Origin: Bacteroidota bacterium
GTDB lineage: Bacteria > Bacteroidota > Bacteroidia > Chitinophagales > Chitinophagaceae
NCBI GenBank assembly: GCA_039805185.1
Contig: JBDLUU010000081.1
Location: 11,766-75,765, forward strand
Direction: 5' to 3'
DNA length: 64,000 nucleotides
The notes under the pieces are model-generated. The model had not been told where the DNA came from and made no database searches. It saw only the letters and a list, made by a program, of their open reading frames with translations. This document shows, one piece after another, positions 41,191 to 46,510 of the stretch (position 1 is the stretch's first letter; each line of letters begins with the position of its first letter). Position numbers and translations under genes: made by a program.

Positions 41191-42030
41191 TTACTTAAGT
41201 ATTCTCCTTATTCCATTGGCATTTTCAATCAATTCCTTTAAATAATCGTAGTTCTCTTTTTCCAGGCAAGACTTGAATTTCCTTAGCTGACTGATATGCT
41301 CATTCAGCACATCCAGCACATTGTCTCTGTTTTGCATGAAAATGGGCACCCACATATCAGCATTACTTTTCGCCAACCTTACCGTGCTTTCGAATCCGCC
41401 ACTCGCCAGCTCAAAAATGGTATCTTCCTCTCTTTCCTTTTCTAATACCGTATTAGCCAGTGCAAAAGAAGTGATGTGTGAAATATGGCTGATATAGGCA
41501 ACGTGCATATCATGCGCACCCGATTCCATATACACCAGATGCATCTGGAGTAAACCATAGATCTCCCGGACCATCCTCAGTGCATCATCATCAGAATCTT
41601 CTGCATTACATATTACCGTTGCTTTCTGAACAAATGCATTGGTTTCGGCTGCATCGGGTCCGCTGTTTTCGGTACCCCACATGGGGTGGGTTGCCACGAA
41701 CCGTCCTCTTTTAGGGTGCCGGGCTACGAGCTGGCATAATACCGACTTGGTTGACCCCACATCAATTACCACTTGCTCTTTTACCATATCAAGTACCTGG
41801 GGTAATAATTTTTCTATTGCATTGATAGGTGTTGCCAGAATAATCAGGTTAGCAGCTGCAACAGCTTCTTCCAGAGGCAGACAACGATCTGCGAGCCCAA
41901 GCTCTACCGCTCTGGCAGCGTGTACCGGATTGGATTCAACTCCAATCACTCTGGAAGCAAATCCCTTCGCCTTCAATACCAGCGACATGGATCCCCCGAT
42001 TAACCCTAACCCTATAATAGCTACAACCAT
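41191..42030 (-). CDS. tyrA: Prephenate dehydrogenase
   Basis: GLGLIGGS, DVGSTK, THPMWGTE, HDMHVAYISH. Confidence 0.93.
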   Translation of the reverse strand: MVVAIIGLGLIGGSMSLVLKAKGFASRVIGVESNPVHAARAVELGLADRCLPLEEAVAAANLIILATPINAIEKLLPQVLDMVKEQVVIDVGSTKSVLCQLVARHPKRGRFVATHPMWGTENSGPDAAETNAFVQKATVICNAEDSDDDALRMVREIYGLLQMHLVYMESGAHDMHVAYISHISHITSFALANTVLEKEREEDTIFELASGGFESTVRLAKSNADMWVPIFMQNRDNVLDVLNEHISQLRKFKSCLEKENYDYLKELIENANGIRRILK

Positions 42031-42033
42031 TGT

Positions 42034-43191
42034 TTATATATTATTGATTCTTTGAATTGCCTGATCAAACTTTTCGATTGATCCACACAAGCTTACCCGA
42101 ACAAAACGATTTCCTGCTGATCCGAATATTCCACCCGGAGTAATGAATACTCCTTTATTATAAAGCACTTTATCACTTAATTCATATCCGTCTTTCATTT
42201 CTTCAGGGATGCTGGCCCAGACAAACATTCCAGCCTGATCTTTACTGTAAGAACAAGCTAAATGATCCAGTAATTCAAAAACCTTTTTTCTTCTTTCTGC
42301 ATATATAGCATTGATTTCATCATACCATTCTTTACCCAGCGCCAATGCAGTTGCAGCTGCATATTGAACCGGAAGAAACATACCACTATCCATATTGCTT
42401 TTGAAAGTGAGCACTTCATTGATCCTTTCCGCTGCACCACATAACATACCAACTCTCCATCCCGCCATATTCTGGCTCTTGCTTAATGAATTCAACTCAA
42501 GAGCCGTTTCCATAGCACCGGGAACCTGTAAAATGCTGAGGGGCTGATCATTCAGGATAAAACTGTAAGGATTATCGTGACAAATCAGAATTTGATTTCG
42601 TTTTCCAAACGCAATGATTTCCTCAAATAGTTGATTTGTCGCTTGTTGACCAGTTGGCATATGCGGATAATTCACCCACATGATTTTGACCTTGCTTAAA
42701 TTCCTTTTTTCCAGTTCGGTAAAATCCGGAGCCCAATCATTGTTTTCTTTCAACTCGTAATACACAGGCGTTGCACCTGATAATTTAACTGCACTGGTAT
42801 ACGTAGGGTATCCAGGATTTGGCACAAGTGCTTCATCTCCTTCTCCCAGGTAAGTCATGCAGATATGCATGATTCCTTCTTTACTACCCAACAAGGGAAG
42901 TACTTCTGTATCCGGATTCAATACTACATTGTACCAGCTGCTGTACCAATTGGATATGGCATTTCTTAAAACGGGCAAACCTTTATAAGACTGATAGGCA
43001 TGTGAATCGGGCAACTGTGCTTTTAATTGCAAAGCTTCAATCACACTGGGATGCGGAGGCAAATCAGGACTCCCTATTCCCAGGTTAATAATATTTTTAC
43101 CTGCTTTATTCAACTGATCAATTTCTCTCAGTTTCTGAGAAAAATAATACTCGCCAATACCATTCAATCTTTTTGCAACTGTTCCTTTCAT
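42034..43191 (-). CDS. Class I/II PLP aminotransferase (aromatic-pathway associated)
   Basis: LGIGSPD, GSKEG, NYPHMPTG, DNPY, SLSKSQNMAGWRVG. Confidence 0.9.
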   Translation of the reverse strand: MKGTVAKRLNGIGEYYFSQKLREIDQLNKAGKNIINLGIGSPDLPPHPSVIEALQLKAQLPDSHAYQSYKGLPVLRNAISNWYSSWYNVVLNPDTEVLPLLGSKEGIMHICMTYLGEGDEALVPNPGYPTYTSAVKLSGATPVYYELKENNDWAPDFTELEKRNLSKVKIMWVNYPHMPTGQQATNQLFEEIIAFGKRNQILICHDNPYSFILNDQPLSILQVPGAMETALELNSLSKSQNMAGWRVGMLCGAAERINEVLTFKSNMDSGMFLPVQYAAATALALGKEWYDEINAIYAERRKKVFELLDHLACSYSKDQAGMFVWASIPEEMKDGYELSDKVLYNKGVFITPGGIFGSAGNRFVRVSLCGSIEKFDQAIQRINNI

Positions 43192-43204
43192 GATAGGGTT
43201 CCCT

Positions 43205-44113
43205 TTATCCTTTAATTAATTTACCTTTCTTGTATATGCCAAACACTTTTACGTTATTGGTATATTCCTTTATCTTCTGCAACATTTTTTCAAATTGTTT
43301 AATTTGATCAAACTCCATATCGGCATAAAAACCATATTTAAAATGGCTGCCTGGGATAGGCATACTTTGCAGCTTACTCAGGTTGATACCCGTAGAAGCT
43401 ACCTGTGACAAAACCTTAGACAATACTCCCCTTGTATGATTGGTCTGAAAATAAATAGAGGCTTTATTGGCATCATTAACCGGTAGCGCCTCCTTGGTTC
43501 TTTTCAAAATCAGGAATCGGGTAATATTGTTTTTTTGTGTTTGAATATCAGGTACCAGAATCTGAAGATCATTAATTTCTGCAGCCAGCTTACTGGCAAT
43601 GGCAGCCAAATGTTTACAATGATGTTGTTTAACATATTGGGCACTTAATGCGGTATCTTCTGTTTCAATCAATTTGAATGAATGCTGTTCCAGAAAATCC
43701 AGACACTGTAATAAAGCCATGGGATGACTGTGGACTTCTTTGATATCCGACAACTGTACGCCTTTATTGGCCAGCAAATTCTGACTGATAGACAAATACA
43801 CTTCTCCTACAATGGTCAGGTTTGCTTTCTGCAAAAGGGAGTAATTAGGCAGTATACTTCCCGCAATTGAATTCTCAATAGCCATAACAGCAGCATCAGA
43901 AACCTTACTATCCAATGCCATTTTAACCAGTTCTCTAAAAGAGGCACAGGGAATAACTGAAACCTTTTTACCAAAAAACTTCCTTGCCGCTACCTGATGA
44001 AAACTTCCCTCGTATCCCTGAATACATATCCCTATAGGCAAATCAGAAGATGCTATTTTTTTATTGGAAGACGACATTATATCTATGTGTTTTAAAATGA
44101 TTTTGGTTGGCAT
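43205..44113 (-). CDS. pheA: Prephenate dehydratase (start could be 44077)
   Basis: QGYEGSFH, AIENSIAG, HSHPMALLQC, NITRF, ACT domain INLSKLQSMP. Confidence 0.93.
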   Translation of the reverse strand: MPTKIILKHIDIMSSSNKKIASSDLPIGICIQGYEGSFHQVAARKFFGKKVSVIPCASFRELVKMALDSKVSDAAVMAIENSIAGSILPNYSLLQKANLTIVGEVYLSISQNLLANKGVQLSDIKEVHSHPMALLQCLDFLEQHSFKLIETEDTALSAQYVKQHHCKHLAAIASKLAAEINDLQILVPDIQTQKNNITRFLILKRTKEALPVNDANKASIYFQTNHTRGVLSKVLSQVASTGINLSKLQSMPIPGSHFKYGFYADMEFDQIKQFEKMLQKIKEYTNNVKVFGIYKKGKLIKG

Positions 44114-44117
44114 ATTG

Positions 44118-44145
44118 AAAAAAAAATCCCGGCTATTTGCCGGGA
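44118..44145 (-). terminator. Attenuator terminator of the pheA leader
   Basis: mRNA UCCCGGC-aaaua-GCCGGGA followed by U9, ending 4 nt before pheA ATG 44113. Confidence 0.85.
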
Positions 44146-44167
44146 CCTGTATTTTGAGTTTACAACT

Positions 44168-44254
44168 TTACGCGATAACAAAACGGACCCGGCTTCTTTT
44201 TTCAAAGTAGAAATAAAAGAAAAAATAAAACCAGTTGTTAAATGCCGTTTGCAT
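44168..44254 (-). CDS. Phe/Tyr(/Trp)-rich attenuator leader peptide, 28 aa
   Basis: Manual translation MQTAFNNWFYFFFYFYFEKRSRVRFVIA*; codons 8-17 all aromatic. Confidence 0.9.
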   Translation of the reverse strand: MQTAFNNWFYFFFYFYFEKRSRVRFVIA

Positions 44255-44258
44255 GAAT

Positions 44259-44266
44259 CAAATATA
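44259..44266 (-). promoter_or_regulatory. Primary-sigma -7 box of leader/pheA transcript
   Basis: TATATTTG on minus strand 4 nt before leader ATG. Confidence 0.6.
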
Positions 44267-44345
44267 TACATTCAAGTGAATGCAAAAAAAAGATTTTTTA
44301 AAAAAATAAACTACGGTTAGTTAGTTTTTCTACAGATAGACACTT

Positions 44346-44380
44346 AAAAAATAAGCCCCCCCGTGGAAACGGAGCGGCTT
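44346..44380 (-). terminator. Intrinsic terminator for the small lipoprotein transcript
   Basis: AAGCC..CCGT-GGAA-ACGG..GGCTT hairpin with adjacent A-tract (U-tract on minus strand). Confidence 0.6.
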
Positions 44381-44472
44381 CTAACGATTGCTTGCCATAT
44401 GAAATTCTTAGGTCTGTTGTTCCCGATCTGCAAGCCAGATACACAGGACCTCTTCACCAACAGACGATTCAA

Positions 44473-44652
44473 TTACTTCTTTGCAGTTGTGTCTACAGTT
44501 GCAGCAGCAGTGTCTACAGTTGCAGCAGCAGTGTCTACAGTTGCAGCAGCAGTGTCTACAGTTGCAGCAGTTGTGTCAGCAGCAGCTTCTTTGTTTTCTC
44601 CAGCGCAAGATGCGAATACACCTAAAGCCAAAACAAATAATAATTTTTTCAT
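44473..44652 (-). CDS. 59-aa lipoprotein with (TVDTAAA)n repeats
   Basis: MKKLLFVLALGVFASC lipobox (Cys16); mature AGENKEAAADTTAATVDTAAATVDTAAATVDTAAATVDTTAKK. Confidence 0.85.
   Translation of the reverse strand: MKKLLFVLALGVFASCAGENKEAAADTTAATVDTAAATVDTAAATVDTAAATVDTTAKK
44489..44572. repeat. 21-bp tandem repeat GTGTCTACAGTTGCAGCAGCA
   Basis: Three perfect copies (44489, 44510, 44531) plus a 19/21 copy (44552). Confidence 0.95.
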
Positions 44653-44684
44653 TTTTTTTCTTTTTAAGTTTGAATGATTACTGA

Positions 44685-44713
44685 TTAATACGCAGATGAA
44701 TAAAAGGTAACCC
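44685..44713 (-). promoter_or_regulatory. Putative ECF-type promoter GGGTTAC-N14-CGTATTAA toward the lipoprotein gene
   Basis: Identical boxes and spacing to the copy at 44756-44784 on the opposite strand. Confidence 0.7.
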
Positions 44714-44755
44714 GGCAAAATCCTTTTTTTCCAAAAAAATTTTTAGGCCTATTTT

Positions 44756-44784
44756 GGGTTACTTTTAAGTGACAAACGTATTAA
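44756..44784 (+). promoter_or_regulatory. Putative ECF-type autoregulatory promoter GGGTTAC-N14-CGTATTAA toward the sigma gene
   Basis: GGGTTAC 44756-62, 14-nt spacer, CGTATTAA 44777-84. Confidence 0.7.
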
Positions 44785-44795
44785 AGACACAGATA

Positions 44796-45362
44796 GTGAA
44801 AGGAGATACGAACGAACAAGCATTATTAAAGGGTCTGGCTCACAACGATTCAAAGGCTGTAGAAATCATATATAAAGAAAATTTTAATATGATTCAGGCT
44901 TTTATTCTGAATAACAATGGAAGCTATGACGAGGCAAGGGATATTTTTCAGGAAGCAATGATTGCTTTATATGAAAAGTCTCAGACCGATTCTTTTGTTT
45001 TGACTTGTCAGATTAAAACCTATCTCTACTCGGTTTGCCGGAGACTTTGGCTGAAGAGGCTCCAGCAGATGGGAAGATATACCGGATCAATAGATGGATT
45101 TGAAGAAACGGTAGCAGTTGAAGAAGATTTGGAAAACCATGAAAAAAGAAACGCAGAGTTTGCAATCATGGATCGGGCACTGAACAGTTTGGGAGAACCA
45201 TGCAAAAGTTTATTGCAGGGTTATTACCTAAAAAAAATGGACATGAATGCATTAGCTATAGAATTTGGTTACACCAATGCGGATAATGCAAAAAACCAGA
45301 AGTACAAATGCCTGATGCGCTTGAAGAAACTTTTCTTTTCACAATATAATATAGGTGAATAA
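44796..45362 (+). CDS. ECF sigma-70 factor
   Basis: sigma2 ARDIFQEAMIALYE, TYLYSVCRRLW; sigma4 ..NADNAKNQKYKCLMRLKK; GTG 44796 preferred because GTG 44769 lies inside the promoter motif. Confidence 0.92.
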   Translation: MKGDTNEQALLKGLAHNDSKAVEIIYKENFNMIQAFILNNNGSYDEARDIFQEAMIALYEKSQTDSFVLTCQIKTYLYSVCRRLWLKRLQQMGRYTGSIDGFEETVAVEEDLENHEKRNAEFAIMDRALNSLGEPCKSLLQGYYLKKMDMNALAIEFGYTNADNAKNQKYKCLMRLKKLFFSQYNIGE

Positions 45363-45403
45363 TTCTTTAACGAATAACACCCAGACTAAAGAACTGAATA
45401 TTG

Positions 45404-46510
45404 ATGGAAGATATTTTATTACTAGACGCAATTGAAAGATACCTCAGCGGTGAAATGAGTGCTGAAGAGCGCAACTATTTTGAGAATCTGAGAAAGACCA
45501 CACCTGAAATAGATCAGATGGTGGTTGAACACAATATGTTCCTTCACCAGATTGCGGACTATGCTGCCAATATTCAGATTAAGCAAACCTTACATGAAGT
45601 TCACCAGCATCTGCTGGACAGAGGAGACCTGAATGAAGGGGGCGCGTTGACTCCTAAAGGAAAAGTGATTCAATTCTGGAACAAGTATAAAAGAGTTACA
45701 GCGATTGCTGCTTCCGTAGGTGGCGTGATTGCTTTATTTATCAGTGGGCTGGCTATGTATTTTTCTACTTCAGTAAATGATCCTAAACTGGAACAGTTGG
45801 GTAAAGATCTGGAAGTGGTTAAGAAAAACCAGCAGGCTCAGGTGAATATCATTAATGAAGTAACATCCAAAATTCCGAGCAATGCAAGATTATTGAGCGG
45901 AGGCTCGGGCTTCTTGGTAGATCCCAAGGGATACATTGTTACCAATGCCCATATTCTGAAAGGTACAGGAGCCATTGTTGTAAACAGCAAAGGCGCTGAA
46001 TTCAAATCTTCTATTGTATTAATTGACCACGATAAGGATCTGGCCATTTTAAAAATTAACGACGAAGAATATGAGTCGGTAAAAACCATTCCTTACAGTA
46101 TTCAGAAAATCAATTCATCCTTAGGCGAAGAAATATTTACATTAGGTTACCCCAGAAATGAAATCGTTTATGGAATGGGGTATTTAAGCGCTAAAACCGG
46201 ATTTAACGGCGATTCGCTTTCGTACCAGATTCAAATCAGCGCAAACCCTGGCAACTCCGGAGGTCCTGTTTTCAACAAGAACGGAGAAGTAATAGGGGTG
46301 TTAAGCACCAGACAAGCCCAGGCAGATGGGGTTGCTTTCGCCGTAAAATCAAAGAATATTCATTCGATTATAGAAGACCTGAAAAAATCAGATACAGCTT
46401 TCAGAAAAGTTAAACTGCCAGCAAAATCAACACTAAAAGGTGTTGAAAGAAAAACACAGATTACCAAAGTGGAAGATTGTGTATTCTTTGTAAAAGCTTA
46501 TACAAAATAG
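45404..46510 (+). CDS. Membrane-anchored S1 (trypsin-like) serine protease with anti-sigma-like N-terminus
   Basis: IERYLSGEMSAEER N-terminal helices, one TM (IAASVGGVIALFISGLAMYF), triad TNAHI / DLAIL / GNSGGP; no PDZ seen. Confidence 0.85.
   Translation: MEDILLLDAIERYLSGEMSAEERNYFENLRKTTPEIDQMVVEHNMFLHQIADYAANIQIKQTLHEVHQHLLDRGDLNEGGALTPKGKVIQFWNKYKRVTAIAASVGGVIALFISGLAMYFSTSVNDPKLEQLGKDLEVVKKNQQAQVNIINEVTSKIPSNARLLSGGSGFLVDPKGYIVTNAHILKGTGAIVVNSKGAEFKSSIVLIDHDKDLAILKINDEEYESVKTIPYSIQKINSSLGEEIFTLGYPRNEIVYGMGYLSAKTGFNGDSLSYQIQISANPGNSGGPVFNKNGEVIGVLSTRQAQADGVAFAVKSKNIHSIIEDLKKSDTAFRKVKLPAKSTLKGVERKTQITKVEDCVFFVKAYTK

Follow-up and report, generated by a model that had tools for sequence, protein, structure and literature searches.

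A predicted leader-peptide attenuator ahead of the pheA operon of Sediminibacterium and its relatives in Bacteroidota

The pheA operon and its leader region

The window, by which we mean the whole 64,000-nucleotide stretch of DNA that was analyzed, belongs to a Sediminibacterium genome (Chitinophagaceae, Chitinophagales, Bacteroidota) of 2.35 Mb with 40% G+C. The closest named record is Sediminibacterium sp. C3, in which prephenate dehydratase (PDT) is 88% identical and the leader described below is almost identical. Genes for prephenate dehydratase (pheA), an aminotransferase and prephenate dehydrogenase (tyrA) follow one another on the reverse strand (Table 1), and with this combination of enzymes the operon makes both phenylalanine and tyrosine. 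The lipoprotein gene located upstream has a terminator of its own at 44374-44355, so that the leader forms a separate transcription unit. At the other end of the leader, the longest pheA reading frame (start 44113) opens 4 nt past the U-tract of the leader terminator and its homologues align only from residue 13-29; the true pheA start is probably the ATG at 44077.

Table 1. Positions of the leader elements and operon genes in the window
Feature	Position	Strand	Description
-33-like TTTG	44283..44286	(-)	putative upstream promoter element from a reading of the sequence; 16 nt upstream of the -7 box
-7 box TATATTTG	44259..44266	(-)	Bacteroidota sigma-A type (consensus TAnnTTTG); T, A and TTTG invariant in the 29-sequence alignment
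Leader ORF MQTAFNNWFYFFFYFYFEKRSRVRFVIA	44168..44254	(-)	28 codons plus stop; ATG at 44254, UAA at 44170-44168
Control codons WFYFFFYFYF	44204..44233	(-)	codons 8-17: 1 Trp (UGG), 6 Phe and 3 Tyr, uninterrupted
Region 1 (distal) CUGGUUUUAUUUUUUC	44219..44234	(-)	pairs with 44203-44189 when no ribosome is present; seen in the whole-leader MFE structure
Proximal hairpin CUACUUU-GAAA-AAAGAAG	44193..44210	(-)	final aromatic codons paired with the AAAGNAG stretch that comes just ahead of region 2
Region 2 GCCGGGUCCGUU	44182..44193	(-)	antiterminator 5' arm; pairs with 44152-44139
Region 3	44139..44152	(-)	shared arm: antiterminator 3' arm and terminator 5' arm
Intrinsic terminator	44118..44148	(-)	stem 44148-44139 / 44133-44124, loop 44138-44134, U9 at 44126-44118
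pheA, prephenate dehydratase	43205..44113	(-)	first gene of the operon; Pfam PDT, E = 1.6e-55
Class I/II aminotransferase (aromatic/aspartate type)	42034..43191	(-)	second gene; Pfam Aminotran_1_2, E = 1.6e-58
tyrA, prephenate dehydrogenase	41191..42030	(-)	third gene; Pfam PDH_N and PDH_C

An earlier note on this DNA had described an unannotated 28-codon reading frame with ten consecutive aromatic codons ahead of pheA, followed by a GC hairpin and a U9 tract. Re-reading of the locus gave the translation listed in Table 1, and the hairpin lies directly where it had been placed, with a stem of ten pairs (six of them G-C), a 5-nt loop and nine T. The description as unannotated also fits: in an exact look-up against a protein collection of about 15 billion predictions, none of four leader peptides was present. 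Aromatic residues make up 10.1% of the proteome, and the pheA leader is the only case in the whole 2.35-Mb genome in which a short ORF with an aromatic run of at least four residues is combined with a terminator; the leader ORF is therefore not a chance occurrence.

Conservation and coding signature of the leader

All 30 Sediminibacterium species that yielded a pheA locus carry a leader of 17-31 codons with a Phe/Tyr run, and 29 of the 30 loci have the terminator. The locus without it (L011, G031:C150) has a leader ORF that runs on (..FAKDKE) and an AT-rich insert in place of regions 3 and 4; attenuation may have been lost there, or there may be an assembly problem. The same device, built on completely unlike stems (for example CGAGAC / GUCUCG / UCGGGAC), recurs in three of six further families in the order, and in one of these three (L034, G060:C30:20800-22307) two tandem aromatic leader-terminator units, MAYRSAYYFYFFCFFSSCRG and MGYTYYYFFSLMDHRRLWVV, stand before one pheA gene. 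We also assessed 80 named Bacteroidota loci, picked by PDT similarity alone, in a protein-anchored survey that comprised 116 loci overall. A Phe/Tyr-rich leader ORF was found upstream of pheA in 76 of these 80 loci, 64 of which have a strictly defined terminator; the genera represented include Filimonas, Flavihumibacter, Ferruginibacter, Ginsengibacter, Flavisolibacter, Segetibacter, Chitinophaga, Hymenobacter and Alistipes, together with Rikenellaceae. Under the same leader criterion, the controls gave 1 hit in 80 antisense upstream regions and 0 of 67 and 4 of 67 in downstream flanks. The element is not universal, as no aromatic leader was found in three families of the order (L033, L035 and L036) and in four of the 80 named loci.

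Four records of the survey (L046, L048, L049 and L092), labelled as a 'Chitinophaga pinensis' MAG or a 'Rhizobium sp. Q54' MAG, have Sediminibacterium-type leaders and PDT identities of 64-70%. True Chitinophaga loci differ from leaders of this type, and the record taxonomy of the four is probably wrong.

The genus alignment carries the pattern of a reading frame. Inside the ORF, 28 of 29 indel runs measure 3 or 6 nt, and indels in the spacer 3' of the leader stop are mostly of 1, 2 or 4 nt. Entropy within the aromatic run is 0.16, 0.54 and 0.51 at the first, second and third codon positions, respectively. The codons of the run vary only as T[T/A][T/C] with an almost invariant first position, where a second-position exchange of T and A swaps Phe and Tyr and a third-position exchange of T and C is synonymous. 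Triplet indels and changes that preserve the codon class would be expected from selection on codon identity in a frame that is read, and would not be expected for a purely structural RNA. On these two features we base the prediction that the leader ORF is translated.

Toward its 3' end, the ORF holds two stretches that are near-invariant in the genus, the UUUG after region 2 (44179-44182) and the ..AAAGC-UAA tail (44168-44178, reverse strand; peptide ..FAKA), and their conservation exceeds what the modelled helices need. A short leader variant of 17 codons (for example MNTANRFYFFSFFFFTK) occurs in L013, L058 and L065, with the stop directly before AGCCGGG; the stop placement relative to region 2 in these loci is like that in E. 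coli trpL. The strong conservation of the C-terminal part of the ORF (UUUG, then ..AAAGC, then UAA) might point to an additional role in trans, beside the action in cis, for the hydrophobic peptide or for the leader RNA left by termination, a behavior for which rnTrpL/peTrpL of Sinorhizobium provides a precedent. We consider such an added function very unlikely, given that no target or partner was identified and that the peptide C-terminus is dispensable in the three loci with the short variant, where the stop precedes region 2.

Each leader examined retains more than one Tyr codon (2-6), and no leader has gone over to Phe alone. With Phe and Tyr codons in every leader and tyrA in the operon, joint control by Phe and Tyr would be the natural reading. 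The earlier note had gone further in proposing that one leader integrates all three aromatic amino acids. Trp sensing is not supported: the Phe/Tyr codons are conserved, but 7 of the 29 genus leaders and most leaders outside the genus lack the single UGG, and trpE in this genome has a WWW leader of its own. The UGG in genus leaders also gives a C/UUGG pairing with the CCGG of region 2.

A narrower reading would keep the same attenuator but make it effectively a Phe-only sensor, with the Tyr codons and the single Trp codon as tolerated fillers that contribute little. Phe codons outnumber Tyr codons six to three in the leader described here and swaps between the two are frequent, and the UGG, absent from so many leaders, has a second use in RNA pairing. 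The aroR leader of Corynebacterium glutamicum (Phe-Tyr-Phe), as summarized in PMC11802643, responds to Phe limitation and not to Tyr availability, so that Tyr sensing should not be assumed from codons alone. On the other side, Tyr codons persist in every leader, and tyrA makes Tyr a product of the controlled genes. We regard a Phe-only sensor as doubtful and retain joint Phe/Tyr control as the predicted mode of sensing.

Competing helices and the proposed switch

The segment GCCGGGUCC inside the ORF (44193-44185) had been noted as able to pair at eight of nine positions with GGUCCCGGC in the terminator 5' arm (44147-44139), and we found this pairing with one U.U mismatch. The antiterminator is longer than that, at about 12 bp, and joins columns 89-100 to columns 134-147 of an alignment of 29 genus sequences. 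Each helix was compared in this alignment with 500 shuffles and with slid controls. A bulge-free register of the antiterminator (95-141, 96-140 and so on) was discarded, as it breaks down in the majority of species.

The covariation check in relatives that the earlier note had called for came out positively. In both percentage of paired cells and covariation score, the antiterminator, the terminator and the proximal hairpin upstream each outscore every one of the 500 shuffles and every slid control, and they covary through shared columns. The antiterminator has 89.9% of its cells paired, with column 141 bulged and four pairs that change on both sides (0 of 500 shuffles); its pair 97-138 reads GC, UA, AU or CG among species. 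Paired cells amount to 90.3% in the terminator, where pair 147-155 is CG in 24 sequences and UA in five. The value for the proximal hairpin is 96.1% (pair 74-87 is AU in 17, UA in five and UG in four sequences, and pair 72-89 is CG in 27 and UA in two), and its score was likewise reached by 0 of 500 shuffles. Column 147 covaries with column 89 in region 2 and with column 155 in region 4, and the four columns 72, 89, 147 and 155 change together: they read C/G/C/G in most species, C/G/U/A in L004-L006 and U/A/U/A in L007-L008. This co-change ties the mutually exclusive helices together.

Terminator-like sites are common in intergenic DNA, and the hairpin could be taken as a constitutive or leaky terminator that insulates the operon from the upstream lipoprotein gene, with a short ORF of no regulatory role. 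Such a reading is scarcely credible when that gene already has a terminator of its own, a conserved -7 box serves the leader, covariation links antiterminator and terminator, and the leader ORF is kept across four orders.

Folding energies in the window range from -19.2 to -20.9 kcal/mol for the antiterminator and from -16.5 to -17.6 kcal/mol for the terminator, making the antiterminator the more stable of the two. The ribosome-free RNA of the window folds as the 1:2 helix plus the terminator at -34.6 kcal/mol. Across the genus, the distal 1:2 pairing of CUGG or UUGG with CCGG is kept in leaders with the Trp codon and is absent from those without it; with one U-rich and one A-rich arm, it shifts register from clade to clade. 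We retain the distal pairing as likely for the window alone and not as a universal part of the element.

The spacing of the elements was studied in the 64 loci with strictly defined terminators. In 94% of them, a segment able to pair with the 5' arm of the terminator scores z < -2 relative to shuffled sequence, and the median energy is -15 kcal/mol. This segment, the 5' arm of the antiterminator, begins at a median distance of 8 nt past the last aromatic codon (10th-90th percentile 5-10), and the stop codon is found anywhere from 24 nt before to 16 nt after the end of region 2. The window has gaps of 10 nt from the last Phe codon to region 2 and of 11 nt from region 2 to the stop. Given the size of a ribosome footprint, region 2 starts immediately in front of a ribosome that has stalled on the last control codon. 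A ribosome terminating at a stop so placed would mask region 2.

Because leader translation is read from sequence evidence, the terminator could in principle be switched by an RNA-binding protein, an uncharged tRNA or a small molecule, with the ORF incidental. The triplet indels and the substitutions that preserve codon class would be expected only if the frame is read, however, and the same applies to the fixed offset of 5-10 nt between the last aromatic codon and region 2. In addition, an Rfam scan of positions 43000-45500 gave no riboswitch or T-box match at E <= 10. We judge a switch that does without the ribosome to be extremely improbable.

The element is very likely a ribosome-mediated (leader-peptide) transcription attenuator that controls the pheA-aminotransferase-tyrA operon of this Sediminibacterium. 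The attenuation logic set out in the earlier note, in which a leader peptide acts through a terminator and an antiterminator on pheA, finds strong backing in the conservation, the coding signature, the covariation and the geometry. Transcription would start at or a few nucleotides from the leader AUG, and a ribosome would translate the 28-codon leader. When charged tRNA-Phe, and probably also charged tRNA-Tyr, is scarce, this ribosome would stall in the ten-codon aromatic run. Region 2 (44193-44182), which begins 10 nt past the last control codon, would then be just clear of the stalled ribosome and could pair with region 3 (44152-44139) in the antiterminator of about 12 bp, blocking the terminator and letting RNA polymerase enter pheA. 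With plentiful aromatic amino acids, the ribosome would instead reach the UAA at 44170-44168 and cover most of region 2; region 3 would be left to pair with region 4, and transcription would be expected to end at the U9 tract near 44118. If no ribosome is present, region 1 would pair with region 2 and the terminator could form as well.

Predicted transcription start, other attenuators and known systems

The -7 box and the leader ATG at 44254 are separated by 4 nt (attc). The corresponding gap is 4-8 nt in all 30 genus loci, with a mode of 7 nt; the leader start codon of L007 is GTG. The -7 box of Flavobacterium psychrophilum occupies -12 to -5, and the mapped start of the pheA leader promoter in that species is the fifth nucleotide after the box (PMC9723704). 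Under this rule, the transcript in the window would start at the A of the leader AUG (A44254), and we predict a start there or within a few nucleotides. The near-leaderless mRNA proposed in the earlier note is a reasonable prediction, with indirect support from the distance of the box from the ATG and from the spacing kept in the genus.

Two further putative leader-peptide attenuators lie outside the window on the forward strand. A His leader, MKLNLHIHHHHMQPNG, with terminator GAAGCTTACCAACTGGTAGGCTTTTTT (G000:C38:65536-65586) stands ahead of hisG-hisD-hisC; it has the run HIHHHH, and its box TAGTTTTG ends 7 nt before the ATG. A Trp leader, MILVNKHWWWHTDSERGM (WWW), with a terminator (G000:C38:71806-71862) precedes trpE and a trp gene cluster that extends from 71939 to its last gene, trpA (78053-78838); its -7-like box CATATTTG ends 4 nt before the ATG. 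The Rfam model Bacteroid-trp (RF01692) had no match at the pheA locus nor anywhere in the genome, and left this Trp leader undetected. A leaderless-type architecture common to all three attenuators of the genome is a modestly interesting twist on an otherwise familiar device.

Genome-wide (G000), the spacing between TAnnTTTG and the first ATG is bimodal in long ORFs: it is 0-9 nt in 69 of 281, and another mode lies at 15-24 nt. The shorter spacings peak sharply at exactly 4 nt, with 30 genes compared with about 0.6 expected by chance from base composition. The leaderless share published for Bacteroides and Flavobacterium is 3.7-5.5%, and the bimodal spacing suggests that many more genes may be leaderless here. 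We tentatively propose a broader arrangement in which, for Sediminibacterium and much of Chitinophagaceae, every leader-peptide attenuator (Phe/Tyr, His and Trp) would sit on a transcript that is leaderless or has a leader of 0-4 nt, and the sensing ribosome would have to engage an AUG at the very 5' end of the nascent RNA. Selection would then have made leaderless initiation integral to attenuation in this phylum, which has no Shine-Dalgarno sequences, and the genome would hold several-fold more leaderless genes (about 25% among those with a consensus -7 box) than the published 3.7-5.5%.

Among curated families, the Rfam scan matched Phe_leader (RF01859) over 44118-44244 at 23.9 bits (E = 0.51) and Trp_leader (RF00513) at 19.8 bits, below the gathering cut-offs of 55 and 41 bits, respectively (that of Bacteroid-trp is 49 bits). 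With 23.9 bits against a cut-off of 55, the window element is not a member of Phe_leader. Two publications considered as prior reports were set aside: Naville & Gautheret 2010 (PMC2965389) makes no mention of Bacteroidetes or pheA, and the 'pheA' motif of Weinberg 2010 is actinobacterial. The element belongs to an uncurated family of Bacteroidota pheA leaders that is absent from Rfam, and a probably homologous leader had already been predicted in F. psychrophilum. The family spans at least four orders, has no Rfam model and is missed by gene finders, so a curated model would improve the annotation of many genomes. The element itself provides a clean, comparatively validated model of the control of Phe/Tyr synthesis in Bacteroidota, a phylum without Shine-Dalgarno-led initiation and with unusual promoters. 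The leaderless-type spacing of three independent attenuators in one genome provides a convenient means of studying how leaderless translation is coupled to transcription in the phylum. The gain is incremental, given a textbook mechanism and a pheA leader already predicted in a flavobacterium.

The element has the hallmarks of its mechanistic class: tandem cognate codons, an intrinsic terminator before the first structural gene and a mutually exclusive antiterminator. The mechanism is of the classical E. coli trpL, pheL and hisL type, mechanistically ordinary and well conserved. The nearest textbook counterpart is E. coli pheL-pheA, which shares ribosome-mediated attenuation of pheA, a short ORF with tandem Phe codons and the logic of regions 1-2-3-4. 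In pheL the control codons are all Phe, a Shine-Dalgarno sequence stands before the leader and pheA is the sole gene controlled, whereas the leader in the window has mixed Phe/Tyr codons, tyrA in its operon and no apparent Shine-Dalgarno sequence or 5' UTR. Leaders with codons for more than one amino acid are not unusual, with thr, ilv and aroR as examples. The E. coli thr (Thr and Ile) and ilvGMEDA (Leu, Val and Ile) operons each have one leader with codons for several end products; they are multivalent like the leader in the window, with other amino acids and another RNA sequence, and no homology is implied. The aroR-aroF system of C. glutamicum (Neshat et al. 2014), as summarized in PMC11802643, shares mixed Phe/Tyr codons and a place before aromatic biosynthesis genes, and differs in having three control codons (Phe-Tyr-Phe), in controlling DAHP synthase, in its reported response to Phe and not to Tyr, and in belonging to another phylum.

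The closest known system is the leader-peptide attenuation element predicted at pheA-aspC3 of F. psychrophilum (Guerin et al. 2021, ISME Commun, PMC9723704, SI Appendix D9, Table S7), for which the supplement reports a start mapped by dRNA-seq, read-through under specific conditions and the highest operon expression in minimal media. That leader contains Phe, Tyr and Trp codons and has transcriptome support, so the multi-amino-acid pheA leader that the earlier note called unusual had a precedent. Both are Phe/Tyr-rich leaders of 27-28 codons with one Trp (theirs being MNTNNTFYSNNSFYFYWNIGRDCYMVI), located before pheA and an aminotransferase gene and equipped with a terminator and an antiterminator. 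They have the common blocks AUAUACAAUCCCG...CGGGAUUUUUUUU, and the published terminator, AAUCCCG...CGGGAUUUUUUUU, likewise has an upstream complementary segment. In an alignment with the window and two genus members, the published RNA has blocks in common with them in the codon run, region 3 and region 4, so the two leaders are probably homologous. They differ in that the F. psychrophilum leader has a 20-nt 5' UTR before its AUG and an aromatic run split into two blocks, while in the window the box lies 4 nt from the AUG, the predicted UTR is 0 nt and the ten aromatic codons are unbroken. The near-leaderless arrangement, also described as unusual in the earlier note, has parallels as well, since leaderless leader peptides are already known in Deinococcus and mycobacteria. 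Deinococcus deserti (PMC4007540) and mycobacteria (bioRxiv 10.1101/834739) have a sensing ORF at the 5' end of the transcript, as predicted for the window; these cases come from other phyla, mostly sense other amino acids (for example Cys) and have experimentally mapped starts, whereas the start proposed here is derived from promoter spacing.
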